64,000 nt of DNA, taken from a virus (Duplodnaviria; Heunggongvirae; Uroviricota; Caudoviricetes). Below are positions 1-31,096 of this stretch, in pieces. A program made the translations under genes and the position numbers. The notes below the pieces were generated by a model. It did not search any database. It was not told the DNA's origin and saw nothing but the letters and a program-made list of their open reading frames with translations. How positions within the stretch are numbered: the first letter of the stretch is position 1; every line of letters starts with the position of its first letter. The stretch lies in IMG/VR virus record IMGVR_UViG_3300028833_000054, positions 182,482-246,481 of that record; one strand, written 5' to 3'.

Positions 1-104
1 CTATAAATCCTTACTCAACAGGTAGTCAAATATCTCCTTATAGTTCTGGACAAGGAGGAATGTTCAATCCGTATTCTTCTGGTACACCGATGACATATTC
101 ATCT

Positions 105-956
105 CTAATGAGATAAAAAAGAGGCCTCTTTTTTATTAACAATTTTGCTTAATTCCTCATTTGAAGCATCATATTTTGTAGCAACAGTTTCATAATGCAA
201 ATACGGAACTAAAAAATTACTGTCAAGACCTTGGCGGTAAATTCCGTCTTTTACGCTCCAAGGAGAAACTTCAAGATACTCACCATCTACTACAATTCCA
301 AGAAGTTCACCATCTTTTATTGATTTTGGTTTTCCTGTGATTTGTTTAGGAGGCCAGATTTCTGATCCTCTTGTAAACTTATGTTTTCTCTTTTTTGTTG
401 TTTCAACAATGCTTGTGCTAGCTGTGTCATTAACTGTTTGTTTTTCGCGTGTGCTTCTGCCAGCTCTTTCTGTGCTATTATCGCTGACTGCTTTATTTCT
501 TCTGTTTGTTCCTTTGTCAATATCACTTTTACTACGCTTGACAGGTTTGTCAGGTTTCTCTGCATGCTGTTTACTAGTGCTTGTATTTTTTGTAGAGGTT
601 TTAGAAGATTTTCTTGATTTTTCTGAAGAGTCAGATGTTCCTTTTGATTTTCTTCCTCCATCTTTTTTATCTTCTTTCTTAGCAGTATTTCTCTTGTTTC
701 TAATGCTATTACGTCCGCTAGAAGTATTCCCAGCAGTATCTTTATCCACATTTTTCTTTGCAGGTTTTGTTTCTTTCTTTGGTTTCTTATCCTCCTTTGG
801 AGAGGACTTAGTTTCCTTTGACGGTTTACTTGTCTTCTTCTTTATTTCCTTTTTGGCTGCCTTAGAAGTTTGTTTAGAGGCTTCCTGCTTTTTGATAGCA
901 GGAGCCTCATCATCAAACAATGCAACGCTGGCCAGTATTTCTTTTTTCTTTGCCAT
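105..956 (-). CDS. Lys/Ser-rich basic protein (histone-H1-like disordered N-terminal ~200 aa plus ~80-aa globular C-terminal domain)
   Basis: 283-aa ORF. N-terminal two thirds is K/S/T/E low-complexity (KKEIKKKTSKPSKETK...). C-terminal 80 aa has ordinary composition. Start overlaps the stop of the upstream gene by 1 nt. Confidence 0.5.
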   Translation of the reverse strand: MAKKKEILASVALFDDEAPAIKKQEASKQTSKAAKKEIKKKTSKPSKETKSSPKEDKKPKKETKPAKKNVDKDTAGNTSSGRNSIRNKRNTAKKEDKKDGGRKSKGTSDSSEKSRKSSKTSTKNTSTSKQHAEKPDKPVKRSKSDIDKGTNRRNKAVSDNSTERAGRSTREKQTVNDTASTSIVETTKKRKHKFTRGSEIWPPKQITGKPKSIKDGELLGIVVDGEYLEVSPWSVKDGIYRQGLDSNFLVPYLHYETVATKYDASNEELSKIVNKKEASFLSH

Positions 957-1828
957 TAAAATTCTATAATTTTAAGAAGATGATTCTTATGTTTTCTGTT
1001 GTAGATGTAATAATTGTCTTCATTAAAATGGTTGACATCATAAGAATTATATCTCATCATATCAAGACCGATAAATCTTACTGGCCAAAATCTTGCAATT
1101 TCATCATTCATTCTTGGACTGTTGTAAAGAATGTCATGATAATGACCATATACCCACAAACTAAGAGTATTCCTATTAGCACGGTAAAGAGTATATGCAC
1201 CCTTGCTAAGAGTTTCTCTTTCCTGCTTGATATCATCTTTAAGAGTCATATCTCTTAAATACCAACCCTCAAGATTAGAGTCATTGACAGGAAGACAAAA
1301 ATCTGGAGCAGAATGAGTACAAACACAATTGATTTCTTTATCAGTTGCAAATTCTCCAGGAAGTGGAGTAATCGCTTCACCATACCAATAGCTCTTAGTA
1401 GGAACTCTCATATTTCTGTCAATGCTGATAGCTCCTCCCCAAAGCAAAATCTTATATGGATATTTGTCATTGTCGTGTTCAACAATTGTAAAATCTTCTG
1501 CAATGATTACATTAGGATAATCAGAAGCAAACTCATCATCAATATACTCAAACCAAATTGGGTCATCATGATTACCGCGGAAGAAAATAACAAAGATATT
1601 TCTTGAAGAAAACATTGTTTGCATTCTCTGGAAAAACTCTTTAGTTTTTTCTCTTGAATAAAAACCAAGACCGATATCTCCGCAAACAATAACACAACAA
1701 TTCTTAACCTTGCAAGAATTTACAAGGTCATCTGCAAATGTAAGAAACTCTCCATGAATATCTCCTACACTATAGATAGTTTTAACTAAATCAGTTTTAA
1801 GTTTAATTATTTTGTTTTGATATCTCAT
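956..1828 (-). CDS. Calcineurin-like metallophosphoesterase (PPP/ApaH-like)
   Basis: Motifs VGDIHGE, CGDIGLG and RGNHDD in the canonical order and spacing of the MPP superfamily. Confidence 0.65.
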   Translation of the reverse strand: MRYQNKIIKLKTDLVKTIYSVGDIHGEFLTFADDLVNSCKVKNCCVIVCGDIGLGFYSREKTKEFFQRMQTMFSSRNIFVIFFRGNHDDPIWFEYIDDEFASDYPNVIIAEDFTIVEHDNDKYPYKILLWGGAISIDRNMRVPTKSYWYGEAITPLPGEFATDKEINCVCTHSAPDFCLPVNDSNLEGWYLRDMTLKDDIKQERETLSKGAYTLYRANRNTLSLWVYGHYHDILYNSPRMNDEIARFWPVRFIGLDMMRYNSYDVNHFNEDNYYIYNRKHKNHLLKIIEF

Positions 1829-1829
1829 A

Positions 1830-2723
1830 TCAATTAGATTTGATTTTTACACTTTCTCCCTCTAATAACTTCAAAAGTGCATTATTTGTAATTCCTAAAA
1901 CAAATGAATGATTTTTTGTGTGTATTTTAATATATGAATCTTCTTTCGTTTCTGAAAAATTTTCTCTAAGATCTTTAGCAGCTTCTTCTCTCATCTTACT
2001 GGTTACCAATCCATTATGATAACAGCTGATAAAGAAATTATTATTTCTCATCCAAGGTTTGTTTCCTTGATAAATCATATCACGGTCAATATTCTGTTCA
2101 TTCCTATAAATCTTATTCATAAATTTATAGTCATAATCTCTTGTATTCTCAAATCCGCCTATAGATAATAATGTATTCAAACGAATAACTAATTGGCTTG
2201 GGTCACAACTTGCACACGGATGAATAATTCTATATCCTTTGTTATTTCCTACTCCATCTATAAAGGCAAGACGGTCAGCATATCTAACAAAACGTTGAGA
2301 ACCAAATTCATCTACCATATTCATCCATAAAGGCCTTTCATTTCCAATGCAATATTCTTTAACAGTGTCAATAAAATTTGGATGAATAATATTGTCATCA
2401 TCAAGGACATAAACAAGAGGATTTGAATCTTTATATACTCTATTCTTCAAATCTTGCAGCGGGCCATTCATCAGCTCTCCACCATAATTGTCTTGTCCTT
2501 CCTTTCCTTGATAGTACATTACATATGATATGTCATTTTCTAAACAAACTACTTCTGCTCTTTTAATATTCAACGGAGACATATCTGAATTGTATTGGTC
2601 AAAACACAATACCCATACGGGATGAAGCTCTTTTTCATCTTTGAATCTTGTTGCAATATTTTTAGCAATAGGATACAAATTCTCTGTCCTTACTACTGCA
2701 GTAACTAACAATATGTCTGTCAT
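1830..2723 (-). CDS. Putative GT-A-fold glycosyltransferase (DxD-type)
   Basis: 297-aa ORF with YVLDDDNIIHPNF (hydrophobic beta-strand followed by a DDD metal/sugar-nucleotide-binding-type motif). No other family assignment is possible by eye. Confidence 0.35.
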   Translation of the reverse strand: MTDILLVTAVVRTENLYPIAKNIATRFKDEKELHPVWVLCFDQYNSDMSPLNIKRAEVVCLENDISYVMYYQGKEGQDNYGGELMNGPLQDLKNRVYKDSNPLVYVLDDDNIIHPNFIDTVKEYCIGNERPLWMNMVDEFGSQRFVRYADRLAFIDGVGNNKGYRIIHPCASCDPSQLVIRLNTLLSIGGFENTRDYDYKFMNKIYRNEQNIDRDMIYQGNKPWMRNNNFFISCYHNGLVTSKMREEAAKDLRENFSETKEDSYIKIHTKNHSFVLGITNNALLKLLEGESVKIKSN

Positions 2724-3787
2724 AATTGTACTATTTTGTTTTTATCAGGAATCATTTCTCCAAATACAAGATAAATGTTATTTTCCCATTCTACTGGTTC
2801 CAAAAGGCATTTCCTTTTAATAAGCTGCATATCAATTATTTTGCTATCATAATTTTTCAAACAGTCCTGTATTTTTTCACAAAGAGATGATATACCGTTA
2901 TCAGTGTATTTGTCAAATTTATATGAATTTGGAATAGGATAGTCATCAAATGTACTTGCACATCCTTCATTAGGAAGCAATAGCAAGCAATCTCTTATAG
3001 CAGCTTCTCTTGGACACATCTCCCTACCTTCATATTCATAAAAATCTACATATACTTTAGCCTTATCATATAAAGCTATCATTTCTTCTTTTGTCAAATA
3101 TTTTCCAGATTTGTCTGGGCCTAGGCCAACAAATTCAATATTTGGCAAACTACCTTTTACAAGTTCAATGTACTTTCTATTTACTTCTTTGCAAGCATTA
3201 TAAAGTACAATATCTTCTTTTGTACTATTTCTTTTACTGTAAAATGAAGGATAAAGACCATGTTGAAATTTAATTCTATTTGTTATTCCATAATACAACA
3301 AATCTCTTCCTATCATCTCATTTTCATACAAATGCAAACAACGGTCTTCAATAGATTTAAGCTTCAGCAATTGTCTTCTTCTTGATATTTTTACTGAGGT
3401 ATCATTATAATCAAATCCAGATGAAAGCCACCATATAATCAATTGCAAATGTTTAAAATTACAAAAGAAATCTAAATTTTTTGGATTCTCTATCATAATC
3501 TCAGGGATAAGAAGCACGGTGTTTTCATCATCTGTTACTTCTTTCCATGTACCGTAATTTATGTCATATAGATTTTTATAATAATCATTTTGTTCAAAAA
3601 TACCGTCAAATCTATAATTGAACATTTTTGCATTTACTCCAAGAGATTTAAGATGAGCAGCCAATTTTTGCAACACTTCAGCTCCTCCTGATTTAACTTC
3701 AGGAGTATTTCCCCAAATCATCAATTTAGAATCTTTTGTAATTTTAATCATTTTTGTATGGACCGAATCTTTTTTCATAAATCTCAA
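2720..3787 (-). CDS. Putative GT-B-fold (GT4-like) glycosyltransferase
   Basis: 355-aa ORF. The C-terminal region EGREMCPREAAIRDCLLLLPNEGCAST resembles the E-x7-E / EG...EA...G nucleotide-sugar-binding motif of retaining GT-B enzymes. The real start may be an internal Met (3751 or 3721), which would remove the 43-nt overlap with the pol fragment. Confidence 0.35.
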   Translation of the reverse strand: MRFMKKDSVHTKMIKITKDSKLMIWGNTPEVKSGGAEVLQKLAAHLKSLGVNAKMFNYRFDGIFEQNDYYKNLYDINYGTWKEVTDDENTVLLIPEIMIENPKNLDFFCNFKHLQLIIWWLSSGFDYNDTSVKISRRRQLLKLKSIEDRCLHLYENEMIGRDLLYYGITNRIKFQHGLYPSFYSKRNSTKEDIVLYNACKEVNRKYIELVKGSLPNIEFVGLGPDKSGKYLTKEEMIALYDKAKVYVDFYEYEGREMCPREAAIRDCLLLLPNEGCASTFDDYPIPNSYKFDKYTDNGISSLCEKIQDCLKNYDSKIIDMQLIKRKCLLEPVEWENNIYLVFGEMIPDKNKIVQL

Positions 3788-5228
3788 TCAGATGATATTT
3801 TTCATCAATTGCTGTCATCATCTCTTTCTTATATGCTTTTCTTTGCATATAGAAATCAGTACAAATCTTTGGAATAAATCCTGGTAGATTACGTTTGTAG
3901 ACAGCACCAGATGTACACATAATTTCATCTGCTTGTCTTCTATGATTTTTGTTTTTCTCTATGAATGTTTCAGGAGAAATATTAAACTGTCTGATTGTTG
4001 TAGGATAAAGTGAAGCAAAGTCAAGTGCAATAACATTCTTATAAATTCCTGCAATTGGTTGATACACAAATGCTCCTTCATATCCTTCATCATTTCCGTC
4101 TGCTTTTTTCTTTCCCTGGTTTGGCATTACTCTGCCTTCTTTGTAAAGATATTCAGACTGAACGATTTCAAGACTTCTCACTGGACTGAATGCAGTCAAT
4201 GCATCAACATGCATAAGATTTGCAAGACCTAAGAATGCAGAACTTGTTTTAATCTTGTTGTCAATTTCACGAACAAGAATACTATCAATTGCATTATAAA
4301 AAACATATTCTGCAGGCTTTTGCCTCCACAGTTCTTTGAATCCCAATTGATGTTCTACCTTCTTTGCACCAACTACTGTATGTGATACCCAGTCAAGTTT
4401 GTTTGATTCTTTGACTTCAACAGACCTATCCCATTTGATATAAATCTCCATATAGTCATACAACAACTTATGCTTTGGAAGACTAATCTTCACTCCTGCC
4501 TCTGCCTGCTGTGGAGTATAATTATACCAAGTTCCAGTCGGTGACAAATATGAAATATCAATACCTAAATTGCTTGCACGATTGAACAAATATGGATAGT
4601 CATATCCAAAGAAATTCCAACCTGTTGCACATGGAGCTGGGTAAAGAAAACTCCTGAAAAATGTTTGCAACAATTCAACTTCAGTATCAAATGACAAATA
4701 TGTAAACTTGTAATTGGTTTTGAATCCCTTACAATGTTCATCAATCTGTTCTTGAATCCATTTTATTTCTGTTTCACTAAGCTTTACTCTTCCAAGAACA
4801 TATGCTTGGTCATCTACAACCCATGAAATTGTATTTACAGGATTTTTTGCCAAACTAGCTTCAGGAAATCCATCATCATCTACATCAACCTCAATATCAC
4901 AGAATGAAGTTTTTGGCATGTACAACTTATTGATTTCTGCAATTTCAGGGTTTGCTGCAATCAAATCTAAAAGAATTTCATGAATTCTTTGTTCAGTTAA
5001 AAATCCATTTACTGGGTCTTTTACAACAGCTTTATAATCCCAAGACTTAAATGAACCATCTGGAACTTCTCCTCGTTTACAATATTTCCATTGATACAGT
5101 TGTGTCTGTGGAATAATATAAGTTAAATATGATATTCCACCTTCTTTATTGATATAAGACAGCACAAGCTGACGAGCTGGCTGTCCTTGTTCATTCAATA
5201 CATCTCGTATTTCTGTAGTAACTATCAT
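3744..5228 (-). CDS. Family-B DNA polymerase, N-terminal fragment (3'-5' exonuclease domain plus palm motif A), T4 gp43-like; C-terminal half missing from the window
   Basis: Exo I FCDIEVD, Exo II GWNFFGYDYPYL, Exo III YNAIDSILV, motif A IALDFASLYPTTIRQFNISPETF (compare T4 gp43 DLTSLYPSIIRQVNISPETI), then GFIPKICTDFYMQRKAYKKEMM (compare T4 GIIPKEIAKVFFQRKDWKKKMF). The ORF stops about 30 aa later, before motif B (KxxxNSxYG) and motif C (YGDTDS). Confidence 0.8.
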   Translation of the reverse strand: MIVTTEIRDVLNEQGQPARQLVLSYINKEGGISYLTYIIPQTQLYQWKYCKRGEVPDGSFKSWDYKAVVKDPVNGFLTEQRIHEILLDLIAANPEIAEINKLYMPKTSFCDIEVDVDDDGFPEASLAKNPVNTISWVVDDQAYVLGRVKLSETEIKWIQEQIDEHCKGFKTNYKFTYLSFDTEVELLQTFFRSFLYPAPCATGWNFFGYDYPYLFNRASNLGIDISYLSPTGTWYNYTPQQAEAGVKISLPKHKLLYDYMEIYIKWDRSVEVKESNKLDWVSHTVVGAKKVEHQLGFKELWRQKPAEYVFYNAIDSILVREIDNKIKTSSAFLGLANLMHVDALTAFSPVRSLEIVQSEYLYKEGRVMPNQGKKKADGNDEGYEGAFVYQPIAGIYKNVIALDFASLYPTTIRQFNISPETFIEKNKNHRRQADEIMCTSGAVYKRNLPGFIPKICTDFYMQRKAYKKEMMTAIDEKYHLIEIYEKRFGPYKND

Positions 5229-5242
5229 ATAAATTATATCTT

Positions 5243-5785
5243 TTACTGGCTTACATTACTACCGAATCCTTTTTCTCCTCTTTTACTTTCTGAATGATAC
5301 TCTTCAAATTCTTTGGCACTAATCAAATTAGGCTTGCTCAAAATAATTGGTGAATGAATAAACTGAACAAGCTTCTGTCCTGTTCTGATAATAGTTGCTT
5401 CATCTGTAAAGTTTGCAATACCAAGATGAACTTCACCAGAGTAATCAGAATCAACAATCTCCGCAGTATAAACAAGACCTTGCTTTGTTGAAACACCAGA
5501 CTTATTTGCAGCCATCAACATTGTTCCAGGAGCAATTGCAGTCTTAATTCCTGAAGGAATAAGAATCCTTGACCCAGGAAGAAGAGTAATCTCAAGAACA
5601 GTCTTATCTTCAATTTTGGTGATATTATATCTTACATGAGCGTTTGGATTTTTAGATATTAAATCATGCAAGAAATCTCTCCCATATTCAGGTACATAAA
5701 AATCAACACCAGCTGCTTCAGCAGTTCCTCTTGTCAAATCATGTACATTTCTAACTTTAATGTAATTAAATTCATCTAATTTCAT
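5243..5785 (-). CDS. dut: dUTPase / dCTPase-family (trimeric dUTPase fold) nucleotidohydrolase
   Basis: All five dUTPase motifs are present: AAGVD, KSGVSTKQG, IVDSDYSGE, GQKLVQ and RGEKGFGSN. In T4-like phages the homolog (gp56) is a dCTPase/dUTPase. Confidence 0.75.
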   Translation of the reverse strand: MKLDEFNYIKVRNVHDLTRGTAEAAGVDFYVPEYGRDFLHDLISKNPNAHVRYNITKIEDKTVLEITLLPGSRILIPSGIKTAIAPGTMLMAANKSGVSTKQGLVYTAEIVDSDYSGEVHLGIANFTDEATIIRTGQKLVQFIHSPIILSKPNLISAKEFEEYHSESKRGEKGFGSNVSQ

Positions 5786-5809
5786 AAATTCAATATTTCT
5801 TTAGTTTCT

Positions 5810-5817
5810 TATAAATA
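5810..5817 (+). promoter_or_regulatory. TATAAATA box (T4 late-promoter-like) upstream of the plus-strand gene at 5849
   Basis: Exact TATAAATA 32 nt upstream of the ATG. Similar (A/T)ATAAATA(T) elements precede other plus-strand genes (16114-16124, 23733-23741). Confidence 0.3.
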
Positions 5818-5848
5818 TTCTATAACAAATTGGATTGAAAGTTTAAGT

Positions 5849-6841
5849 ATGGCATTATTAAATACTGAATATTCTGAAGTAATGAATTTTATTGCTATTC
5901 GCAGGTATCTTGACCTTTCAAAGGGCATCATAAATACTTGTAACGGTTATATCAATAAAACTTTAATTACTTATGGTCAAGGTGACACAAAAGATGCAGA
6001 ACATTCAAATGAAGATATTTTGAAATCAAAAATAGGTGATTTTGTCGAAAAGATAAAAAGATACACAAACATTGTAACAACTCTTACTAAACACATAGGA
6101 GAGTTGACTGAATTGATGAAATATTGTGTAGACCATATAAAGTATTATAGTGCTAAATATCTTATAAAAGAAATTCAATTATTGGGTTTAAGAATAAAAG
6201 CAATTGTAGTCAATATTAAAATAAAGATTGCACAAGCTTTAAGACAAGTTCTTGTAAATATTCTTCACGGAAAAGCAGCAGCTATCACAAATGCACTTGT
6301 AGCTGCAATCATATTAAAAGTACAAGTTATAGGACAATTAATTGGTGTAGCATTGGCAGCTATTGATAGTTTATTAAATATGCTTCCTCCTATGATAACT
6401 GTAAAACCTCATACTATGGCATTCTTCCCAACTCCTAAGAGTATGTCAAAGGTTGACCTTGTTCCAATCAATACAAATAGAAGTATCTGTGAAAGACTTC
6501 CTGAACCTGTGAATGTAGCTATAAGAGAAGCAGTAAAGATTACTGACAAATTGAATGTACCTATAAAACTAGCAATTGTAGCTGCTTGTGCTGCAAGTGG
6601 AATTGCTCAGGCTTCAAGCAAGAGTCATGAATTTAATATTATCGGTTGTAAACGTATAAACTTAATAGACCCAAAGAAGATAATAAAAGCTATAGAATTT
6701 ATTGTTGCATTAATTCCTATACCGCAAGCACTACCAAAGTATGAAAAAATTTCAATAATCAATCTTGGTTATCTTGCTTGGTTATTAACTACATTTGAAT
6801 TTGGCGGAAAGCGGTCATTTGGAATGATGGGCATGCCATAA
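5849..6841 (+). CDS. Hypothetical protein (Ile/Ala/Lys-rich, partly hydrophobic)
   Basis: 330-aa plus-strand ORF, flanked by a TATAAATA box (5810-5817) and a downstream hairpin terminator. No recognisable motifs. Confidence 0.4.
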   Translation: MALLNTEYSEVMNFIAIRRYLDLSKGIINTCNGYINKTLITYGQGDTKDAEHSNEDILKSKIGDFVEKIKRYTNIVTTLTKHIGELTELMKYCVDHIKYYSAKYLIKEIQLLGLRIKAIVVNIKIKIAQALRQVLVNILHGKAAAITNALVAAIILKVQVIGQLIGVALAAIDSLLNMLPPMITVKPHTMAFFPTPKSMSKVDLVPINTNRSICERLPEPVNVAIREAVKITDKLNVPIKLAIVAACAASGIAQASSKSHEFNIIGCKRINLIDPKKIIKAIEFIVALIPIPQALPKYEKISIINLGYLAWLLTTFEFGGKRSFGMMGMP

Positions 6842-6846
6842 ACAAA

Positions 6847-6876
6847 AGAGGAAATCATTTTGATTTCCTCTCTTTG
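6847..6876 (+). terminator. Rho-independent terminator-like hairpin
   Basis: agaggaaatc / gatttcctct 10-bp stem with a 5-nt loop, followed by a T-rich tract, immediately after the stop of the 5849-6841 gene. Confidence 0.5.
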
Positions 6877-7000
6877 TATTCTTTACAAACATGTTTCGGA
6901 GCTGGTAAAAATCCATCTGCAGTCAATTCAGTCTCTGTATATACTTTAGGCTTTAGATGTTTTCTTTTTCTATTAGAAATCCATTTTCTAATGAAATACA

Positions 7001-7432
7001 TTAATGTTTTTCTTTTGGGATTGGAATTGGTCTGCATTCTATAATCTTAGTTTTTTTGAATGTAGGGAAAAATATTATTTCATCAAAAAATGAATAATAT
7101 GCTTTAAGCTTAGGAGTGTCATAATCATCAAGCAAAGTTATTTCTTCAACTTGTGACTTTGTAATATCAGTCAAAGATTTCTTTATACCCATTATTACAT
7201 CACAATTAAGCTTGCTGTTGATATAAATAACTCCTGTATATCTTTTTGACTTAGCACCAGCAGCAATGAGTCTTTCAATTTCAGTATTGACAATGAACCT
7301 ATGGGTAGGTTTTGTAATATCCAACCCAGAATCTGCTATAAGTGTATCAATATCAATAATGTAAAAAGTATTGAGATTTGTAAATACATTCTTAAGTTTT
7401 CTATACGGTTCTATTGTAATATAAAACTTCAT
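7001..7432 (-). CDS. Hypothetical protein
   Basis: 143-aa ORF in the minus-strand gene string. Confidence 0.4.
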   Translation of the reverse strand: MKFYITIEPYRKLKNVFTNLNTFYIIDIDTLIADSGLDITKPTHRFIVNTEIERLIAAGAKSKRYTGVIYINSKLNCDVIMGIKKSLTDITKSQVEEITLLDDYDTPKLKAYYSFFDEIIFFPTFKKTKIIECRPIPIPKEKH

Positions 7433-7484
7433 TAAAAGAGACTTATTTTTCTTCTACTGTGTATTTATTCATTAAAATACAACA

Positions 7485-8264
7485 TTACTCTTCTTCGTAA
7501 GACATTCTAAGAGCGTCAGAAATGCTCTTAACTATTTCATTTACATCCATTTGTTCAACCAAACAGTCAACAAATTTCTCACCACCATTATCAAATTCAG
7601 CCTTTGCAATATTGTAAATTGATTTGCTAGGAAGATTGATTGTCAATGACAATGATACCTCAGTTGGATGCTTCTTGCAGGTCTTAGCCAAAATCTTTAC
7701 AGGGTCTGACTCTGCAACACCTGAGATTGATACAGGTTTGTTAACTACTGTAGGAGCAACAACAGTTGGCTCTATATAAGCAGGTTCTGGACGTCTTGTT
7801 GGAATTCTTGTAGGAGTTATATCTTCAACATAGTCTCCATTGTATTCATCATAAGATGGAAGAGGAAGCATATTACCTCTATATTTAGGAGGAGTATATC
7901 TTTTTTCTCCAATCTTTGACCTATCAATATTCAAACTATTTCCATTACCAGATGCACCTGTAATATCTTCAAGAGGTGGAACATCAACAGTCTGCTCACC
8001 TGCTGCTGGGTCCATATATGTATATTTTCCCATTTTGATAGTTTCAAATTTCCAAGTGTCAGAAGGATTTACAATTTCAACCATTACTTTTCCTTTAAGG
8101 TCTGCTGCATTTCTTGTCATTTGTGAAATAAATCTCTGATTACAAGCTTCTCCGCTTTTGAAATTGAAGAAATATTCTCCATCTGTACAAGTAATATTGT
8201 CAAGCGTTTCTACCTGACCTGCATTTTCACCATCTAACCACTGGAAATATCTTCTCTGTCTCAT
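7485..8264 (-). CDS. Hypothetical protein
   Basis: 259-aa ORF. Pro/Thr-rich linker in the middle. Confidence 0.45.
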   Translation of the reverse strand: MRQRRYFQWLDGENAGQVETLDNITCTDGEYFFNFKSGEACNQRFISQMTRNAADLKGKVMVEIVNPSDTWKFETIKMGKYTYMDPAAGEQTVDVPPLEDITGASGNGNSLNIDRSKIGEKRYTPPKYRGNMLPLPSYDEYNGDYVEDITPTRIPTRRPEPAYIEPTVVAPTVVNKPVSISGVAESDPVKILAKTCKKHPTEVSLSLTINLPSKSIYNIAKAEFDNGGEKFVDCLVEQMDVNEIVKSISDALRMSYEEE

Positions 8265-8297
8265 TATTCTTTAATATTAATTTTATTTACTTTTATA

Positions 8298-8660
8298 TTA
8301 GTTATTTGTACTTTTTGGCAAGATGAATCTTCCGTATTGCTGTTGGTATTCTTTGACCCAGGGGGTTTGCTCCCATCCTGGGGTTTCAAACCAGGAGAGG
8401 TAGTCTTCTCTGAAGTTTTCAAGAGCTTCTGTAAAATGCGCTTTATAATTTGCATGAGATATTACATTCAGTCTTCTTTCATAAATTGTAAAAGTGTGTC
8501 GTGTACCTTGTACTCTCCACACAACAGATAGCATTGGATCATATTTACTTACTTGTGCTTCAGAATATTCAATCGTAATTGGTCCTCTCCATCCCTTTGG
8601 ATTTATTTCTACTGTTTTAATTTCTGATATACAATTAGAAAAATCAAAATTGTTTGGCAT
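8298..8660 (-). CDS. Hypothetical protein
   Basis: 120-aa ORF. Confidence 0.4.
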   Translation of the reverse strand: MPNNFDFSNCISEIKTVEINPKGWRGPITIEYSEAQVSKYDPMLSVVWRVQGTRHTFTIYERRLNVISHANYKAHFTEALENFREDYLSWFETPGWEQTPWVKEYQQQYGRFILPKSTNN

Positions 8661-8662
8661 AA

Positions 8663-9088
8663 TTAAGCATCTACCTCCTCTTCTTCAGGATTACCTTGTG
8701 TGTAATTTGCACTTGCATCTGCATAAAACATTTTTCTGCGAACAATCTTTTCATCTCTTTCCTCTTTAGCTTCAATTGCTTCTTCTACCATCTTGATAAC
8801 ATCAGCATTTGACCGTCTATTTGCAAGAGCTCCAGAAATCTTTCTTGTTCCAAGCAAAGCAGAACCAATACCAAGGATAACGATTACTTTATCAACAAAC
8901 TCTAATATATTTCCTGCCTCGTCCTGATTTACAAGATAAAATACAAACAATCCAAGAAAAACAAGAATAGCAGTAAATGTTAAAATAACTCCGCAAAATC
9001 CAGTAGCTGAAGTTTCACCTGTCATTCCAGATGTAACCATTTCTTTGAATGACACTGTAATTTTGCCTGTTTCTTTATTTCTGCACAT
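8663..9088 (-). CDS. Small membrane protein (two predicted TM helices)
   Basis: 141-aa ORF with hydrophobic stretches GFCGVILTFTAILVFLGLFVFYLV and VIVILGIGSALLG. Confidence 0.45.
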   Translation of the reverse strand: MCRNKETGKITVSFKEMVTSGMTGETSATGFCGVILTFTAILVFLGLFVFYLVNQDEAGNILEFVDKVIVILGIGSALLGTRKISGALANRRSNADVIKMVEEAIEAKEERDEKIVRRKMFYADASANYTQGNPEEEEVDA

Positions 9089-9735: not shown

Positions 9736-10437
9736 TTATGCATTGATTTCTGGGTCATCTTTATGAATATACTGTTCAATAAACTTGAAATGCCTCTCAT
9801 AAATATGAATACTTCCACATGAAAAAATTATTTCAGGATAAAAATCAACATCAATATTGTTGTCTCTTAAATCCTTTACCAATTTGTTTGCAACATACTG
9901 ATGCCAAGCTAAATCATTCCTGAATCCAAATATTGCATCACAGCTTCTTTGATAAACAATGTAAACAAGCTTTTTATTTCTGACAAACTGATGTGTATAA
10001 CAAGTACACATAAAATCTGACATTCCATTCTTGTTATATTCATACTGCATTTCAGGACGAGTATAAATCATAACAGCTCTTCTTGTATAAGGGTCATCAA
10101 TAAGTTGTCTCAAACAATTTCTGTATTGATTTTTATTCTCTTCACTAAAAATACACCAACCATAATTTGAATTGATGAACCCGTCTTTGTCAGCAACTTG
10201 TTTCCAAACTTCTGGAACTTTACCAGGAATATCATATACATTCAAAGACTGTGACAAATACCAACTAAGTTCTCTTTCAACATAATCTTGATTTACTTGA
10301 TGAAATATTGTATTGTCAGTAGCAATGAAATTCTCACCGACAATTTCAACTGTCTTCCTTCCTTGACTGTCTACTGTAAACTCACCATTCTGATATTTCT
10401 TTGCAAACTCGTGTCTAATATCTTCTACTGTCTTCAT
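9736..10437 (-). CDS. ThyA-fold pyrimidine hydroxymethylase, dCMP-hydroxymethylase type (T4 gp42-like)
   Basis: Strong similarity along its length to the thymidylate synthase/dCMP hydroxymethylase fold: KTVEIVGENFIATD, INSNYGWCIFSEEN, RRAVMIYTRPEMQYEYNKNGMSDFMCT (catalytic Cys), YQRSCDAIFGFRNDLAW. The FGFRND position carries Asp (cytosine-specific dCH type) rather than the Asn of ThyA. Length 233 aa, like gp42 and unlike 264-aa ThyA. Confidence 0.7.
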   Translation of the reverse strand: MKTVEDIRHEFAKKYQNGEFTVDSQGRKTVEIVGENFIATDNTIFHQVNQDYVERELSWYLSQSLNVYDIPGKVPEVWKQVADKDGFINSNYGWCIFSEENKNQYRNCLRQLIDDPYTRRAVMIYTRPEMQYEYNKNGMSDFMCTCYTHQFVRNKKLVYIVYQRSCDAIFGFRNDLAWHQYVANKLVKDLRDNNIDVDFYPEIIFSCGSIHIYERHFKFIEQYIHKDDPEINA

Positions 10438-11057
10438 ATCAATTCTACATTCATTTCTTTTAACTTAGAGAGGATTTCATTACAGATATCATCAATATTA
10501 CGGTAATTACCATCTACTGTCTCTACATTGATTTTCATATAGTATCTCGGATGCAACCTATCCATAATTTCATTAAACAATTTAACCTCTCTTGTAACTG
10601 TCTTCAATCTTTTTTCTGGGTCATATTTTGATGTAAAAGACTTGTCATCATCATGAGATATAACAAATTCTGGACTAGCATCGAGATGAATTACAACTGG
10701 AGTAAAATACAAATTTTTGTTATGAATATCTCTTATCATTTCAAAAATTTTATCTGGGTCACCATTTCTGTAAATTTGTCCATACACATATTCACCAATA
10801 TGACTTCTGTCCATAAATGCGATTGTTTTATTACATCTCTTAAGAACATATTCTTGCATTGCCATTGTACTGCATTTTACAACTGCTTGCTTGAATGTTT
10901 CTCTTTGAACTTCATTTTGGTCTTCACCTTCTTCACATTTCGGCCCAGTAGCATGCATAAGAAAAATATCTGCAACGTTCTTATACTTATCTGCTAATTT
11001 GTTAATGATTGTGCTTTTACCAAGGTTGTCAGCTCCTTCAAATATCAATGTTACCAT
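10434..11057 (-). CDS. Thymidylate-kinase-family dNMP kinase
   Basis: P-loop IFEGADNLGKST and DRS motif (FMDRSHIGEYVYG). 207 aa. Overlaps the hydroxymethylase gene by 4 nt. Confidence 0.65.
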   Translation of the reverse strand: MVTLIFEGADNLGKSTIINKLADKYKNVADIFLMHATGPKCEEGEDQNEVQRETFKQAVVKCSTMAMQEYVLKRCNKTIAFMDRSHIGEYVYGQIYRNGDPDKIFEMIRDIHNKNLYFTPVVIHLDASPEFVISHDDDKSFTSKYDPEKRLKTVTREVKLFNEIMDRLHPRYYMKINVETVDGNYRNIDDICNEILSKLKEMNVELI

Positions 11058-14199: not shown

Positions 14200-16053
14200 T
14201 TAAGACCTTCCTCTCAAGGTAATGTTTATTGGTCCTACAAGAGAATCCAATGATGTTCCATATTCAATTCCTTGTGATGAAGTAAATCCTCCTCTGAATA
14301 TAGGTTGTAAATCATTTATTTCTACAATATTTCCTAATTTGTCTTTTACCAATCTTGTAAGAACAATATCACCGTATTCATCTATTCCGTAATTTCCTTC
14401 ACCATAATAATATGAATTGTTCTTATCAGCATCAAAGAATATTGAAACAGAGTCAACACCTGCAACAGATTCTACTATTCTTACTAAATCAGAAACTGGA
14501 AGTCTGTCACGTCTTGTATTCTTAATAAAGTAATTTGACAATACAGTAATTATAGCACTTTTAACAGCATTGAAATTATAATTAGCCCAAATTTGAACAA
14601 AGATATTAACTGCAAAGTTTACAAATATAGGGTCAAGAATTCTGTTTTCTACTGTTATAATCTTTTGTCCTGAGTCATCAATAAGATTGATAATTCCTTG
14701 TTTCTCATCTTCTGTCAATAAGAATCTATCCTTTGAACAAGTGAAATAATTTTCACCAGTATTTATACGTTTGCTTATGTCAGGAACAAGATACAAATAA
14801 ACAATATTGTCATCTAACTTGGAATCATCATATTTCTCTTTAAGAATATCATACTCATTCTGTGCTTCAATCATTTGGTCATAAGCTTCTTCTGCTGCTT
14901 CAGAATTCTTTCCTGTGAGATTAACTTGTGCCATATAAGTTTCTTTTGTATACTCATACTTGTTCTTTGCTGTCAAATATTCTTTTTCAATCTTTGAATC
15001 TTCAACAGTATCAAATCCGCTGAATGCATCAATAATTGAGAACATATTCAATTTTGTTAAGAAATATCTGTAATTAATAGCATTTGCAAGAACAAAGCTT
15101 CTTGAAACATGAGGTGCAAGTTGTCTTGTTATTTCTATTGCTTCTTTTTCTGCACCAAACAATACTTCAGATGCAGATGAAAGAGTATATATACTGTTCA
15201 AATCAATTATATTTCCTTCAACATCATAACCACCTTCATCAAATGTCCAATAATTAACATCATCATTTTCAAGAATATTTCCAAGTGGACCAGCAGAAAC
15301 AATATATTCACAAAGAATTGATGCTCCCTTTTCAGGAACTGCACCAGAATTTCCTGTTCCAAAGAATACATCTATTCCTCCGTTAAAGGCAGGTTTGACA
15401 ATGCATGCTTTTTGCTCATATCCCATATCTAATAATGATGGAACTGCCATCCAAAGTTCTCCATTAACATAAATATTAACAAAGAAATTATCAACAAGTT
15501 CATTTGCTTTATTTGCAAAATTGAAAGATTGCAAAGCATAACCAGTTCCAGTAGCTTGTTGATACTTCAATTCACCTTGAATAATAGGAATTTCTATCTT
15601 ATTGTCATGAGCACCAACAGTAAGTCTCATATGTTTTCCAGGAAAAACTGCCATATAAGTCAAACCGTTTGAAGTATTTCTAATTTTTGTGAAATTGTTT
15701 ATTCTTATTGTTTGACCTGCTAAATCACTGCTATTATTGTATGTCATATACAATGCACCTCTTGCAGCAAGACCGGTTGAAGGAGTGTGACCTGCAAGAG
15801 AAGCAAGACCTCTGATAGATCTCTCGTGGAATGCTGTAGCGATATTAAGTTCAGTTATAGATGTTTCAATATAATACAATATCATTCTTCCGAGATGAAG
15901 AACAACATTTATAAGTTGAGCAAAAGGTGAAGCGATTGTAAATTCTTGATTGTTTAACTTATAAACATTTCTCAAATATTCATATACATCATCACGAAGC
16001 TCATTGAATCTTAATCTATTCGCTTTAAATATTTTAAATTCAGGAGTCATCAA
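14200..16053 (-). CDS. Hypothetical large protein (possible virion/baseplate component)
   Basis: 617-aa ORF adjacent to the fibre gene. No clear motifs. Confidence 0.45.
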   Translation of the reverse strand: MMTPEFKIFKANRLRFNELRDDVYEYLRNVYKLNNQEFTIASPFAQLINVVLHLGRMILYYIETSITELNIATAFHERSIRGLASLAGHTPSTGLAARGALYMTYNNSSDLAGQTIRINNFTKIRNTSNGLTYMAVFPGKHMRLTVGAHDNKIEIPIIQGELKYQQATGTGYALQSFNFANKANELVDNFFVNIYVNGELWMAVPSLLDMGYEQKACIVKPAFNGGIDVFFGTGNSGAVPEKGASILCEYIVSAGPLGNILENDDVNYWTFDEGGYDVEGNIIDLNSIYTLSSASEVLFGAEKEAIEITRQLAPHVSRSFVLANAINYRYFLTKLNMFSIIDAFSGFDTVEDSKIEKEYLTAKNKYEYTKETYMAQVNLTGKNSEAAEEAYDQMIEAQNEYDILKEKYDDSKLDDNIVYLYLVPDISKRINTGENYFTCSKDRFLLTEDEKQGIINLIDDSGQKIITVENRILDPIFVNFAVNIFVQIWANYNFNAVKSAIITVLSNYFIKNTRRDRLPVSDLVRIVESVAGVDSVSIFFDADKNNSYYYGEGNYGIDEYGDIVLTRLVKDKLGNIVEINDLQPIFRGGFTSSQGIEYGTSLDSLVGPINITLRGRS

Positions 16054-16133
16054 TAACTAATATCATTTGAATATTTATCTTGCTAATTTGTATACCAAAA
16101 ATCTCATACAACCAATAAATATACAAATATAAC

Positions 16134-16520
16134 TTGATTTGTATGAAGAAACTATTTGCTTTATTAGTTGCAGTTTCATTATTATCAGGATGTGGTCTTA
16201 TTCAAAAGATTTCACATAAGGACCAAAATAACACTGATGTAGAAAATACTCTCGGTGTTTCTTATATGAGATTTACTATGAACAAAGTTCTTGGTATTTC
16301 CCAGGTAGATTCTATGATTGTTGCAGACCATCTTACTCCTCTTAATGAATGGCTTTATGCCCCAATTGTTGGAGAAGATAAGAAGGCAATTTCTCAGTAC
16401 ATGTATATAAAATCTCTTGAAGAGGACAATGAATTGATTTATGTAGTAACTCAGACAAAAGTTGATACTTTGTTTAAATGTACAAAGAGAATAACAGAAA
16501 AAGTAATGCTTGATGAATAA
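16134..16520 (+). CDS. Lipoprotein (signal peptide plus lipobox)
   Basis: MKKLFALLVAVSLLSGCGL. The likely true start is at 16143 (MKKLF). Confidence 0.55.
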   Translation: MICMKKLFALLVAVSLLSGCGLIQKISHKDQNNTDVENTLGVSYMRFTMNKVLGISQVDSMIVADHLTPLNEWLYAPIVGEDKKAISQYMYIKSLEEDNELIYVVTQTKVDTLFKCTKRITEKVMLDE

Positions 16521-17196
16521 TATGAAAGAGATGGTATTCGGTTTTGTTCCAACACAATTTGATGGTACTGAATATGTAATTACTGAGGAGAATCTTGGTA
16601 CACTTCCTCTCCCTAATGCATATTCATATCTTCCATTTATGTCTCCTATTATGGACCAAGGCAGTGCTTCTACTTGTGTTCCTCACTCTATCAGTGCAGT
16701 ATATGATTATTATATTGCAATGAATCATCCTGAACTTACAAATAATGGTAAATTTGCAAACTCTGGTATTTCAATCCAACAAATTTATAAAAGCAGAACA
16801 AATTACGGTGATGGAATGTCATACAAAGAAGCATTTAAGTTCTGTCTTCACAAAGGTGTAGTATCAGAGCAGGATTACAAAAACAAGAAGTTTGACAATC
16901 CTATGAAGATTTACATGTACGGCCGTGTAATGTCAATTGGTGTTCTTAAAAGAGCAATTGTTGCAAACGGTCCTTGTCCTATTGCTACAATGGTAAGAAG
17001 TCTTGATAGAGATGATTTCTGGAACGGCAGTGGAAACTATGGCGGCCATGCAACTTGTTTGATTGGATATTCTGACAAGAAAGAAGCTTTTATACTTAGA
17101 AATTCTTGGGGAAGGTCATTTGGTTCTGGCGGATATGTTTGGTTCCCTTATTCTGATTTTGAGAAGATTCTTGAAGCTTGGACTGTGTTAATATAA
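16510..17196 (+). CDS. Papain-like cysteine peptidase (C1 family)
   Basis: QGSASTCVPHSISAV (Q-G-x-x-x-x-C...S, catalytic Cys), GGHATCLIGYSD (His) and FILRNSWGRSFGSGGYVWFPY (Asn-Ser-Trp-Gly), in papain order and spacing. Confidence 0.7.
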   Translation: MMNNMKEMVFGFVPTQFDGTEYVITEENLGTLPLPNAYSYLPFMSPIMDQGSASTCVPHSISAVYDYYIAMNHPELTNNGKFANSGISIQQIYKSRTNYGDGMSYKEAFKFCLHKGVVSEQDYKNKKFDNPMKIYMYGRVMSIGVLKRAIVANGPCPIATMVRSLDRDDFWNGSGNYGGHATCLIGYSDKKEAFILRNSWGRSFGSGGYVWFPYSDFEKILEAWTVLI

Positions 17197-17223
17197 AAAA
17201 TCCTATATAAAAAATTTCCTATA

Positions 17224-17246
17224 AGAGAGGCTAAGCCTCTCTTTTG
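17224..17246 (+). terminator. Rho-independent terminator-like hairpin
   Basis: agagaggc/gcctctct 8-bp stem with a 3-nt loop, followed by tttgcatttt. Confidence 0.55.
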
Positions 17247-17293
17247 CATTTTATATATTGACCAATAAATAATAAAATAGAAATTTTCACTCA

Positions 17294-17545
17294 ATGATTA
17301 AGAGAAATAAAGTGAATGCAAGGTATATCTCTGAACACGCACAAGATGTTTATACTGATTTGGGATTTGACTATAGAGGAAAATTGTTTGCACGAACATC
17401 TTCCCCTATAATATTCCGAAATATAAACAACTTTTATTTCATTGGTCAAATAGATAAGATGATATCATTACTAGTAGATATGACAAAACAGATAAAGTTG
17501 CAGTATATGATTTCATTACATAAAAATGATAGAAACGTAAATTAA
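17294..17545 (+). CDS. Hypothetical protein
   Basis: 83-aa ORF immediately upstream of the giant gene, separated from it by 1 nt. Confidence 0.35.
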   Translation: MIKRNKVNARYISEHAQDVYTDLGFDYRGKLFARTSSPIIFRNINNFYFIGQIDKMISLLVDMTKQIKLQYMISLHKNDRNVN

Positions 17546-17546
17546 T

Positions 17547-23726: not shown

Positions 23727-23761
23727 AAGTAGATAAATATTTAAAGAAAATTTGATTAAAC

Positions 23762-24103
23762 ATGAGCTATCGTTCTGGTTATACTGGACCACAAGTAAGT
23801 AAAGCCGTTAAATATATGACACATCCTAATGTTGGAACTGTGTTAACATTTGATACATCTGCAAATTTTCCTCCTAGAACAGGCGGAGATGATGCATTAG
23901 ATGGTCCTTATTTTGGTGGAAATGCTGAGAAGTTCTTATTTGTTGATGCAGCAAACAATATGATGTATAGATGGAGACACCTTACCCAAGAACAGTGGTT
24001 AGAAACACACGACAATTTAGATGATTATCCTGAAGACGGATATTCTTATGTACTTTGTTCTGGTGCTGGTTCTGGAGATTTAGTTTGGACTCCACTTGAA
24101 TAA
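23762..24103 (+). CDS. Hypothetical protein
   Basis: 113-aa ORF, followed by a hairpin terminator. Confidence 0.4.
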   Translation: MSYRSGYTGPQVSKAVKYMTHPNVGTVLTFDTSANFPPRTGGDDALDGPYFGGNAEKFLFVDAANNMMYRWRHLTQEQWLETHDNLDDYPEDGYSYVLCSGAGSGDLVWTPLE

Positions 24104-29983: not shown

Positions 29984-30015
29984 TATGATATTATATCACA
30001 AGTAACAAATTAAGA

Positions 30016-30567: not shown

Positions 30568-31003
30568 AAATACATCTGCTCAATATATTGCACATTAAAA
30601 TATTTGAACTGTCTATAAGATTCTGGTCCTCAGGAAGATTGTATCGTCTTGCCTCGCTAAGCTCTGATACAAACATACCAGTTGCAAAAGCATTCAAATC
30701 ATACTTCTCTGCAAAGATATTGGCATTGCACCAGAAACAAATGCACTCCTTGTCTCTGAAGAACTGCAAATCTCTTGAAGTAACCAAATACCTCCAATCA
30801 TATCTCATATCAAGAAGACCGAGCTCAGTGCCGTGACCAAGAAATACAATTCTGTCATGGGTTCGAAGAGCATCTGTAAGTACATTCCTTGATATATGAT
30901 TTCCTGTAATAAGAGTAACATTGTCCCACCGCAAATAGTCCTGGTAAATTGCAGAACAAAATGCAGTAGAAGGGTCAGTTGGATGAATGAACAATGTTCT
31001 CAT
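30461..31003 (-). CDS. Hypothetical protein
   Basis: 180-aa ORF. Its 3' end overlaps the 30016-30567 ORF by 107 nt, so one of the two may use a later start. Confidence 0.35.
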   Translation of the reverse strand: MRTLFIHPTDPSTAFCSAIYQDYLRWDNVTLITGNHISRNVLTDALRTHDRIVFLGHGTELGLLDMRYDWRYLVTSRDLQFFRDKECICFWCNANIFAEKYDLNAFATGMFVSELSEARRYNLPEDQNLIDSSNILMCNILSRCIFDPIEQIRDTIYRGYVSTNNPIIQFNRECMGFNDI

Positions 31004-31074: not shown

Positions 31075-31096
31075 ATCATATTGACAGGCAAGAGGT

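Follow-up and report, generated by a model that had tools for sequence, protein, structure and literature searches.

A family B DNA polymerase gene that stops soon after palm motif A could be a broken gene or one part of a working enzyme; which of the two lies at this locus? The question is raised by an ORF of 494 residues (positions 3744-5228, minus strand; start ATG, stop TAA) in the 64-kb stretch of phage DNA analyzed here, which we call the window. Based on our analyses, this ORF (hereafter 43A) is very probably the gp43A-type N-terminal subunit of a replicative family B polymerase that is encoded by two genes and broken at the tip of the fingers. Fingertip splits of this kind have been reported before in T4-like and jumbo phages, and the case described here is real but fairly ordinary.

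The polymerase ORF and its end point

The Pfam, PHROG and RB69 gp43 comparisons all identify 43A as the N-terminal half of a family B polymerase. In Pfam, it matched DNA_pol_B_exo1 and only positions 24-146 of the 453 positions of DNA_pol_B, and residues 113-492 of RB69 gp43 aligned with it at E=2.8e-33. The ORF spans an N-terminal domain, the 3'-5' exonuclease, the early part of the palm including motif A, and the first helix of the fingers. In the RB69 gp43 alignment, Exo I (DIE), Exo II (NxxxYD), Exo III (YNAID) and motif A (LDFASLYPT) are all intact, in agreement with the original prediction of a gp43-like protein carrying these motifs. At 3999-4022 and beyond, 43A has SLYPTTIRQFNISPETF as against SLYPSIIRQVNISPETI in T4-like enzymes, and it extends about 20 residues past the end of the RB69 gp43 alignment at residue 492.

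Mapped on T4 gp43, the stop falls at the tip of the fingers, at about residue 511, in the loop that joins the two long helices of the fingers, upstream of motif B (KxxxNSxYG). The distance to motif B, estimated earlier at about 60 residues, is about 40-50 on this map, and the estimate was approximately right. In T4 numbering, the last residue before the break is 511 both in the window and in a relative with a 71% identical 43A (P0136), 507 in Lak-A2 and 502 in Acj9; each of these positions is at the fingertip, ahead of motif B, and a concatenation of 43A with a C-terminal half (43B) is colinear with a complete family B polymerase. The TAA of 43A is overlapped by the ATG of the next gene, as ATGATTAA.

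Conservation of both halves and the search for the partner

The identical 43A protein is present on 6 contigs, the longest of 363,991 bp. The three that were shown come from independent assemblies, namely two Logan runs (SRR9006730 and SRR7634052) and one JGI sample (3300024342), and the sources of the cluster include ENA. 43A is under strong purifying selection: against a 91%-identical variant, dN/dS is 0.081 at dS 0.68, and over the last 54 codons it is 0.063. There are 487 homologues at E<=1e-10, and the best 120 of them (49-99% identity) are all 470-525 aa long with the same end point; motif A is present in every one of them, motifs B and C in none. Proteins corresponding to the C-terminal half number 891 at E<=1e-60 and are mostly 400-449 aa; motif B occurs in 115 of the best 120 of these and motif A in none. 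The stand-alone C-terminal halves that match 43A, of about 390-430 aa, carry KxxxNSxYG, YGDTDS and the thumb. Both stand-alone halves are conserved clade-wide.

Our searches for the partner in this genome agreed with the earlier claim that the downstream part of the window encodes neither motif B or C nor a thumb. A six-frame regex search of the 64 kb found neither motif B nor motif C in a polymerase context; a motif-B pattern at 23477-23503 (minus strand) and a motif-C pattern at 57295-57312 (plus strand) both adjoin stop codons and are chance matches. With five C-terminal halves as tblastn queries, including those of the closest available relatives (P0100 and P0120), the best match in the window had E=0.035, which is noise, and the 9.9 kb downstream (L003) likewise held no motif B, motif C or thumb. 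Of a contig of about 364 kb, the search covered the 64-kb window and a further 7 kb or so; any partner is no closer to 43A than 9.9 kb on the downstream side or 58.8 kb on the upstream side. No examined member of a 43B cluster had 363,991 bp as its listed longest contig, and the samples of the candidate 43B proteins that we looked up differ from the samples shown for the exact 43A of the window. Because its own second half was not retrieved, we infer the split, and with it a 43B of its own, for this genome. Judging by the synteny of its closest relatives, in which 43B is located between the genes for the major capsid and the tail sheath, this 43B probably occupies the same position.

The two halves could be linked in a range of relatives. 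On Logan contig SRR14637336_7423, a 43A that is 65% identical to that of the window lies 4.3 kb from a 43B on the same strand. P0136 keeps the synteny of the window (dUTPase, 43A, GT-B gene and 299-aa ORF), and it shares four samples with the 43B P0120, the longest contig being 224,524 bp for both; three further 43A/43B pairs are linked by longest contigs of identical length. Among complete genomes, the halves are separated by about 221 kb in Lak-A2, by 101-281 kb in the LR7565xx/LR745206 huge phages, and by 2.3-3.5 kb in MA9V-1 and MA9V-2, two cultured phages of Chryseobacterium. In the cultured Sphingomonas phage PAU, gp105 is a 487-aa half, too. Taking the break point, the clade-wide conservation and the 43B of relatives together, the proposal of a split polymerase whose second half lies outside the window is strongly supported.

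Might 43A be an autonomous enzyme that needs no 43B, such as a stand-alone 3'-5' exonuclease and proofreader or the partner of another polymerase? Its exonuclease domain is complete, the 43B of this genome was not found in the 64-kb window and the 9.9 kb downstream, and an additional minimal split Pol III alpha is described in this jumbo-phage group (Iyer et al., PMC7824862). However, selection constrains motif A and the first helix of the fingers as strongly as the exonuclease (dN/dS 0.06), which would be unexpected if the polymerase function had been lost, and 43B accompanied 43A in every relative where both halves were sought. We therefore consider an autonomous 43A quite improbable.

A single-chain polymerase could also arise if the halves were joined at the fingertip by a group I or II intron or a split intein. 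Introns and inteins are abundant in huge gut phages (PMC12880540), and inteins do occur in the polymerases of relatives: the 43B of Lak-A2 is broken at motif C by intein pieces, and PF14890 (intein) is present in many 43B homologues. These inteins lie at motif C within 43B, however, and not at the fingertip break, and the 43B of P0100 and P0120, which are closest to the clade of the window, is uninterrupted. The tail of 43A past the last aligned fingers residue is only about 10-20 aa, which leaves no room for intein blocks; the N-terminus of 43B in relatives, which begins about 38 residues ahead of motif B, is likewise too short for them. No Rfam intron was found in the window, and the stop codon of 43A overlaps the start of the GT-B gene. 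Moreover, in relatives with complete genomes 100-280 kb separates the halves, which are on opposite strands, and cis-splicing is therefore excluded there. An intron or intein at the junction, raised in the original prediction as a possibility, is unsupported, and we regard such joining as very unlikely.

The same prediction had considered a pseudogene, that is, a remnant decaying after a nonsense or frameshift mutation in a phage that relies on another polymerase. An ORF lacking motifs B, C and the thumb, with the second half absent from the window, would fit this idea. On the other hand, a dN/dS of 0.08 extends across the whole ORF including its C-terminal tail, the catalytic residues of the exonuclease and motif A are all intact, the stop position is common to all of the best 120 homologues down to 49% identity, the identical ORF recurs in independent assemblies, and viable cultured phages (PAU and MA9V-1/2) have the same half-gene. 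We reject decay as hardly credible. A sequencing or assembly frameshift near 3744 that interrupts a contiguous full-length polymerase, suggested by the truncation itself with nothing beyond it, is so improbable that we reject it: different runs and pipelines (Logan and JGI) gave the identical 494-aa ORF, no downstream frame encodes polymerase sequence even with close 43B proteins as tblastn queries, and what follows downstream is the gene of a complete GT-B protein that has its own N-terminus and a confidently predicted fold.

Genes beside the polymerase half

The gene that follows 43A (2720-3751, minus strand) is predicted to encode a GT-B fold, GT4-like glycosyltransferase of 343 aa when started at ATG 3751; the ORF list extends it to TTG 3787, and gene callers start it at ATG 3778. 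Its family has 1404 representatives. We are confident of this predicted assignment, which is in line with the GT-B-like ORF noticed originally: the AF2 model has a pLDDT of 94.4, the highest-ranking Foldseek matches are all enzymes of GT-B/GT4 type, the top 50 in PDB and BFVD being mainly GT-B glycosyltransferases, and the profile matches the glucosyltransferase PDB 8xsg at E=1e-5. The closest known proteins are the putative glycosyltransferase 3oy2 of PBCV NY2A, the Actinobacillus minor glucosyltransferase 8xsg/8xsh, TarM, PglA and MshA. With these GT4-like enzymes, the protein shares the two-Rossmann GT-B fold (Foldseek E 1e-9 to 1e-6, TM <=0.67) and the conserved N-terminal GG..E and C-terminal P-R-E-A motifs, but just 9-16% sequence identity. 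The gene adjoins 43A in the 71% and 91% identical relatives, too.

An alignment with GT-B hmC-glucosyltransferases had been proposed as a check. The hhalign comparison of a 53-sequence family profile with T4 beta-gt gave no similarity (probability 0.2%, E=0.32), and neither beta-gt nor alpha-gt was among the top 50 structural matches. The resemblance to the beta-gt/42/43 neighborhood of T4 therefore holds only loosely: a gp42 homologue is near and the next gene is a GT-B gene, but this gene is GT4-like and unrelated to beta-gt. The gp42 homologue is a dCMP hydroxymethylase of 233 aa (9736-10437, minus strand), 4.5 kb upstream of 43A, and the hydroxymethylase named earlier in this neighborhood is thereby confirmed; it matches PDB 1b49 at E=2.4e-71 as compared with 1e-7 or worse for thymidylate synthases, is 48% identical to T4-like gp42, and conserves the catalytic Cys and the Asp that specifies cytosine (DFMCT and RSxD). 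Since the window has at least 4 more GT2 genes together with sugar-nucleotide enzymes, a GT-B gene next to the polymerase does not point specifically to DNA glucosylation. The combination of a dCMP hydroxymethylase with many glycosyltransferases hints at modified DNA, possibly with glycosylated hmC.

The next ORF, of 297 aa (1830-2723, minus strand), is a candidate GT-A glycosyltransferase domain. The DDD motif reported for it stands, as a DxD-like VLDDDNI that is invariant in the family alignment; the GT-A assignment is only plausible from sequence. Three of its relatives have sub-threshold GT2 matches at the DxD region (E 0.006-0.008), and fusion to classical GT2 domains occurs in L038 and L045. 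The ORF itself had no significant match in Pfam, NCBIfam or PDB, its hhalign comparisons with the GT2 proteins of the window gave E 0.016 or worse, and its single-sequence model (pLDDT 34) is unusable. Downstream of it is a metallophosphoesterase-like protein of 290 aa (956-1828, minus strand), which bears out the metallophosphatase named earlier (phrog_1649, E=1.4e-15) and has a 30%-identical homologue in Lak-A2. A Lys/Ser-rich basic protein of 283 aa (105-956, minus strand) is encoded by the last gene before the convergent terminase module; in SRR14637336_7423, the interval from 43A to 43B contains a homologue of it (36% over 125 aa). Directly upstream of 43A is a dUTPase-family protein of 180 aa (5243-5785, minus strand; Pfam dUTPase 1.3e-14). 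This adjacency is kept in L026, L048, L055-L057 and PAU, although in PAU the dUTPase is downstream of 43A. The neighboring GT-B and DDD-motif genes are independent genes that belong to the large glycosylation repertoire of the phage, and are not parts of the polymerase.

Assembly, known counterparts and meaning of the split

We suggest the following as the most likely scheme for the two-gene polymerase. The N-terminal and proofreading exonuclease domains would come from 43A, together with the palm aspartate of motif A and the first of the two fingers helices. The second of these helices, which bears motif B, would come from a 43B of about 414 aa encoded elsewhere in the genome of about 364 kb, as would motif C of the palm (YGDTDS), the KKKY motif and the thumb. 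The two chains would then assemble non-covalently, with the fingers helices pairing in trans and the palm being built from both chains. Because the carboxylates of motifs A and C jointly bind the two catalytic metals, polymerization would need both subunits. That the halves would assemble without splicing is suggested by analogy with gp43A/B of Aeromonas phage 25 and with split Pfu polymerase: the fingertip-split gp43A and gp43B of T4-like phages, as in phage 25, co-purify and are active (PMC2988022), and Pfu polymerase with a fingertip split performs like the wild type (PMC3061061).

According to Petrov et al. (2006, 2010) as cited in PMC3061061 and PMC2988022, the gp43A/gp43B split occurs in Aeromonas phages 25, 31, 44RR and 65 and in Acinetobacter phages 133 and Acj9. 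Like these, the polymerase described here belongs to family B, breaks at the tip of the fingers before motif B into halves of about 500 and about 400 aa, and has no intein at the junction; the Acj9 halves measure 502 aa (43A) and 390 aa (43B), and the Acj9 break is within about 9 residues of that of the window (T4 residue 502 versus 511). In contrast, T4-like phages have their halves separated by 2 bp to 3 kb, and the split turns up sporadically among relatives that are otherwise unsplit, whereas in the clade of the window, which is large and deep (down to 49% identity and below), it is fixed; the window 43A and Acj9 43A are only 30% identical. The nearest relatives of the window's 43A in the phage collection are the "group 2.2" halves of Lak, huge and jumbo phages, at 37-38% over residues 1-487. 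These T4-core halves (PHROG 2062) include those of Prevotella phages Lak-A/B/C, LR7565xx, PAU gp105 and MA9V-1/2. The Lak and huge-phage halves end at the identical point and, as in Lak-A2, lie far apart; Lak-A2, however, lacks the neighbors of the window's 43A (the GT-B gene and the 297-aa ORF) and differs in its motif-C intein break. The phage of the window is a separate lineage, with a contig of about 364 kb, the standard code and no TAG-joined ORFs. Outside phages, the split family B polymerase of Methanothermobacter thermautotrophicus and split Pfu also reconstitute full activity non-covalently from two pieces (PMC3061061). Both enzymes are archaeal; the Pfu split is artificial and at the fingertip, as in the window, whereas the M. 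thermautotrophicus enzyme, with genes 85 kb apart, is divided within the palm at a point about 83 residues C-terminal of the fingertip (PMC3061061).

One further idea concerns the use of the split. 43A sits among nucleotide-metabolism genes (dUTPase and dCMP hydroxymethylase), and since 43B is on the capsid and sheath side in the closest relatives, expression of the second subunit could time or titrate replicase assembly. By analogy with the engineered fingertip split of Pfu, an open fingertip could also alter the selection of hydroxymethyl-dCTP or other modified dNTPs. That the halves of this lineage belong to different expression modules, and that the split is an adaptive device for regulation or substrate tuning and not a neutral scar of mobile-element insertion, seems to us unlikely.

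The split polymerase data reveal no new kind of system, and their main relevance is to annotation. A "DNA polymerase" of about 500 aa that ends after motif A in huge phages of the gut and rumen type is a genuine subunit and not a broken gene; completeness checks and polymerase phylogenies of such phages must seek the distant partner of about 400 aa and concatenate the two. A very large uncultured clade, the Lak megaphages included, has the fingertip split as a fixed trait, and the distance between 43A and 43B, from about 2 kb to about 280 kb, offers a natural series on how far the fission and dispersal of an essential gene are tolerated.

A half-length family B DNA polymerase gene

The 43A gene (494 aa; 3744-5228, minus strand), which starts with ATG and stops with TAA, encodes the N-terminal half of a family B DNA polymerase. 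The Pfam matches of its product comprise the exonuclease domain of family B polymerases and, from the 453-position polymerase domain, positions 24-146 alone. In our search of solved structures, residues 113-492 of RB69 gp43 aligned to 43A (E=2.8e-33), and this alignment showed that Exo I (DIE), Exo II, Exo III (YNAID) and motif A (LDFASLYPTTIRQFNISPET) are intact. The PHROGs match, phrog_2062 (E=2e-74; annotated "DNA polymerase"), spans 502 positions, and phrog_2062 is therefore itself a family of half-length proteins. A six-frame motif search of the 64-kb window found motif A once (3999-4022) and neither motif B nor motif C in a polymerase-like context; the single matches to motif B (23477-23503, minus strand) and motif C (57295-57312, plus strand) adjoin stop codons and are attributed to chance. 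When five C-terminal halves, including those of the closest available relatives, were used as tblastn queries against the window, only noise was returned (best E 0.035), and the second half is also absent from the 7 kb beyond the window start covered by an overlapping contig. Taking the domain and motif content together with the absence of a second half from the window and its 7-kb extension, the original prediction was correct that this polymerase lacks motif B, motif C and a thumb in the window.

An intron or intein at the junction had been offered as one explanation of the early stop, and our results speak against it. The TAA of 43A and the ATG of the gene after it overlap (ATGATTAA); the product of that gene is predicted to be a complete independent fold, and its homologues begin at the same residue. 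The window contains no Rfam family at the gathering threshold and no tRNA, and the 43A tail and the 43B N-termini of relatives are too short for intein blocks. In this polymerase family, inteins sit instead at motif C, inside 43B, and many homologues carry PF14890.

A frameshift, an assembly artefact or a pseudogene is excluded by several lines of evidence. The identical 494-aa protein was called on six contigs, the longest being 363,991 bp; of the three contigs shown (18, 9.9 and 2.6 kb), two were assembled from separate Logan runs and one from a JGI sample, ENA is listed as a further source, and the IMG/VR search gave the 9.9-kb contig alone. Against a 91%-identical variant (L055), dN/dS was 0.081 at dS 0.68 (Nei-Gojobori) and 0.063 over the last 54 codons, with the TAA stop at the same position in both. 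Among 487 homologues at E<=1e-10, the best 120 (49-99% identity) are all 470-525 aa long; motif A is present in every one of these 120, and motif B or DTDS in none. The same half-gene occurs in cultured phages, namely as gp105 of Sphingomonas phage PAU (487 aa) and as the "DNA polymerase II" of Chryseobacterium phage MA9V-2 (495 aa). Megablast of window positions 1-9000 against the phage collection gave no match. Lak phages are known to recode TAG; this has no bearing on the present gene, as 43A ends in TAA and nowhere in the window does a TAG connect a pair of long ORFs.

The second half in relatives

A tblastn search with the 43B of Acinetobacter phage Acj9 had not surfaced Lak matches, and the whole 541-kb Lak-A2 genome was searched locally. 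Its 43A is 37% identical to ours and stops at the same point, and its C-terminal half is encoded on the other strand, at a distance of ~221 kb. The Lak-A2 intein is broken into separate ORFs, with its boundaries at ...AGDTD|S... (L013:2466-3284) and ...ILAHN|SIYVEF... (L013:3628-4614). On this piece (L013, MK250019.1 343001-393000), AGDTD|S is followed by an intein N-part ending in a stop, an 84-aa ORF and an ORF that opens with the intein C-block; other Lak records have ORFs of 322-328 aa that combine intein-C and extein. The Lak-A2 43B is a "fractured gene" or a split-intein-like arrangement, and since this half is interrupted at motif C, the Lak polymerase may come from three genes.

Searches that used first the spliced Lak 43B and then P0120, the 43B of a relative, as query recovered hundreds of stand-alone 43B proteins, mostly of 389-433 aa. 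In the best 120 matches to P0120, KxxxNSxYG is present in 115, DTD in 116 and motif A in none; the stand-alone proteins also hold a KKKY motif and a thumb. P0120 shares four samples with P0136, the 43A of a 71%-identical relative, and the longest contig is 224,524 bp for both; in three further 43A/43B pairs the longest contigs of the two members are likewise identical in size. The P0136 locus has the same order as the window: a dCMP-hydroxymethylase-like gene, a dUTPase, 43A, a 355-aa gene, a 299-aa gene and a convergent terminase.

The distance between the halves varies widely. On a 36,338-bp Logan contig (SRR14637336_7423), 43B (85-1353) and a 43A 65% identical to ours (5663-7147) share a strand. 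The 4.3 kb between them is taken up by three ORFs: one of 532 aa that is endonuclease/Mom-like, one homologous to the 283-aa ORF of the window, and one of 182 aa. The 532-aa ORF (in the stretch at about 1400-5660) has a PD-(D/E)XK/DUF559-like "ELDFYIP...AIEINGLHYH" motif and a weak Mom-domain match. These 4.3 kb of ORFs look like a mobile-element insertion at the split. In the complete genomes of MA9V-1 and MA9V-2 the halves are 2.3-3.5 kb apart; in MA9V-2, a cultured phage, a gene for a TnpB-family RNA-guided endonuclease lies between them (OR513085.1 153006-154172). In the complete LR745206 and LR7565xx huge-phage genomes the distance is 101-281 kb. In the window's own subclade (L017, L030 and L033), 43B occupies an odd site for a replication gene, with the gp23-type major capsid gene to one side and the tail sheath gene to the other; genes for IMPDH, DUF488, UDP-glucose dehydrogenase and a metallophosphatase adjoin it. 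The window has none of the gp23, IMPDH, UDP-glucose dehydrogenase and sheath genes that flank 43B in these relatives.

The 43B of this genome was not found in the 64-kb window plus its 7-kb extension. The candidates P0120, P0110, P0370 and P0100, all 43B proteins of relatives, come from samples other than those of the exact 43A, and among the 43B members listed, sampled from clusters of 203 and 154, none is on a contig of 363,991 bp or in the samples of 43A. A metagenome-contig scan with P0100 gave two distant intein-type loci only, an IMG/VR scan with P0120 gave no match, and variants in the cluster of our 43A (P0360 and P0362) occur in yet other JGI samples. We strongly infer, rather than observe, a partner 43B gene in this genome; to judge by synteny with L017, L030 and L033, it would probably be found, as an ORF of about 414 aa or an intein-interrupted version of one, in the interval from the gp23-like capsid gene to the sheath gene.

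Glycosyltransferase-like neighbours and the hydroxymethylase

The gene after 43A (343 aa; 2720-3751) belongs to a family of 1404 representatives, whose profile matches the Actinobacillus minor glucosyltransferase 8xsg (E=1e-5). An alignment-based AlphaFold model reached a pLDDT of 94.4, and Foldseek returned mainly GT-B/GT4-type enzymes, from both the PDB and viral models, which confirms that a GT-B-like ORF stands beside the polymerase. At the profile level it does not resemble T4 beta-glucosyltransferase (hhalign probability 0.2%). The 297-aa ORF (1830-2723) has an invariant VLDDDNI motif and, in distant relatives, occurs as a fusion with classical GT2 domains. It has no match in Pfam, NCBIfam, PHROGs or phage tblastn; GT2 matches for its family are sub-threshold only, hhalign against the GT2 proteins of the window is not significant, and a single-sequence structure model was unusable. 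A GT-A fold is plausible for this protein, judging from its motif and its fused relatives. Farther downstream, the expected metallophosphatase is present (956-1828; PHROGs phage metallophosphoesterase family), followed by a 283-aa ORF (105-956, minus strand) with an extremely Lys/Ser/Thr-rich stretch in its first ~190 residues and a conserved C-terminal domain. Both GT-like genes are kept beside 43A in the 71%-identical relative, and in the 91%-identical variant 43A is again followed by the GT-B gene. Lak-A2 has neither.

A dCMP hydroxymethylase gene (9736-10437, minus strand) lies 4.5 kb upstream of 43A. Its product is 48% identical to T4 gp42 (PDB 1b49, E=2.4e-71) and keeps the catalytic DFMCT and the cytosine-specifying RSxD motifs; a P-loop (AAA_28) kinase-like gene (10434-11057, minus strand) overlaps it. 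The proposed analogy to the beta-gt/42/43 neighbourhood of T4 thus holds for the true gp42 homologue and the presence of a GT-B gene, but not for beta-gt itself. Since the window also encodes at least four GT2 proteins (35153-36406, 46713-47876, 53595-54551 and 57949-59832), a GDP-mannose 4,6-dehydratase (40082-41185) and an epimerase (52105-53124), the GT genes next to the polymerase belong to a large set of glycosylation genes. The hydroxymethylase and the many GT genes suggest that the phage DNA may contain hmC, possibly glycosylated.

Several other features of the window deserve mention. Glycosyltransferase and sugar-nucleotide genes are unusually dense for a phage, and T4-type portal, UvsX, NrdD and NAD-ligase genes stand among them; the glycosylation products may act on DNA, virion proteins or host glycans. 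The region 30000-34000 has a GC content of 40-44% against a background of ~32%, and holds a 594-aa SPFH/Band 7 protein (31097-32881, minus strand) and a long antisense ORF (31436-32899, plus strand). The region 16000-24000 is the sole plus-strand block, with GC skew reversed, and its 2059-aa ORF (17547-23726) has no Pfam match.

A polymerase split at the fingertip

For mapping of the break, each N-terminal half was concatenated with a C-terminal half and aligned to T4-type gp43. In our 43A and in the 71%-identical relative the break comes after T4 residue 511, in Lak-A2 after 507 and in gp43A/gp43B of Acj9 after 502. All three positions are in the fingers-tip loop between two long helices, roughly 40-50 residues ahead of motif B, and once joined, the halves run colinear with gp43, without gap or duplication. 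Splits in the T4-family phages 133, 44RR, 31, 25 and 65 fall in the same fingertip region, T4-family split products co-purify and are active, and a fingertip-split Pfu polymerase acts like the wild type (PMC2988022, PMC3061061).

43A supplies the exonuclease and motif A together with the first of the two fingers helices. In relatives, 43B contributes the other helix, which bears motif B, as well as motif C and the thumb. In family B polymerases, the aspartates of motifs A and C bind the catalytic metals together, which leaves neither half able to polymerize alone. By analogy with phage 25 and split Pfu, the halves would assemble non-covalently, and the two fingers helices would form their hairpin in trans. 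The arrangements in relatives, from which the direction is deduced, suggest a path in which the fingertip split came first, the insertion of a few genes (endonuclease or TnpB genes among them) next, and genome-wide dispersal later.

As far as its sequence can tell, 43A is a genuine and functional half of a family B polymerase that is split at the fingertip. Such splits were already known, and 43A belongs to a very large uncultured clade in which the split is fixed. The main value of the finding is therefore the correct annotation of this gene, with a possible hmC-based DNA modification as a side lead.
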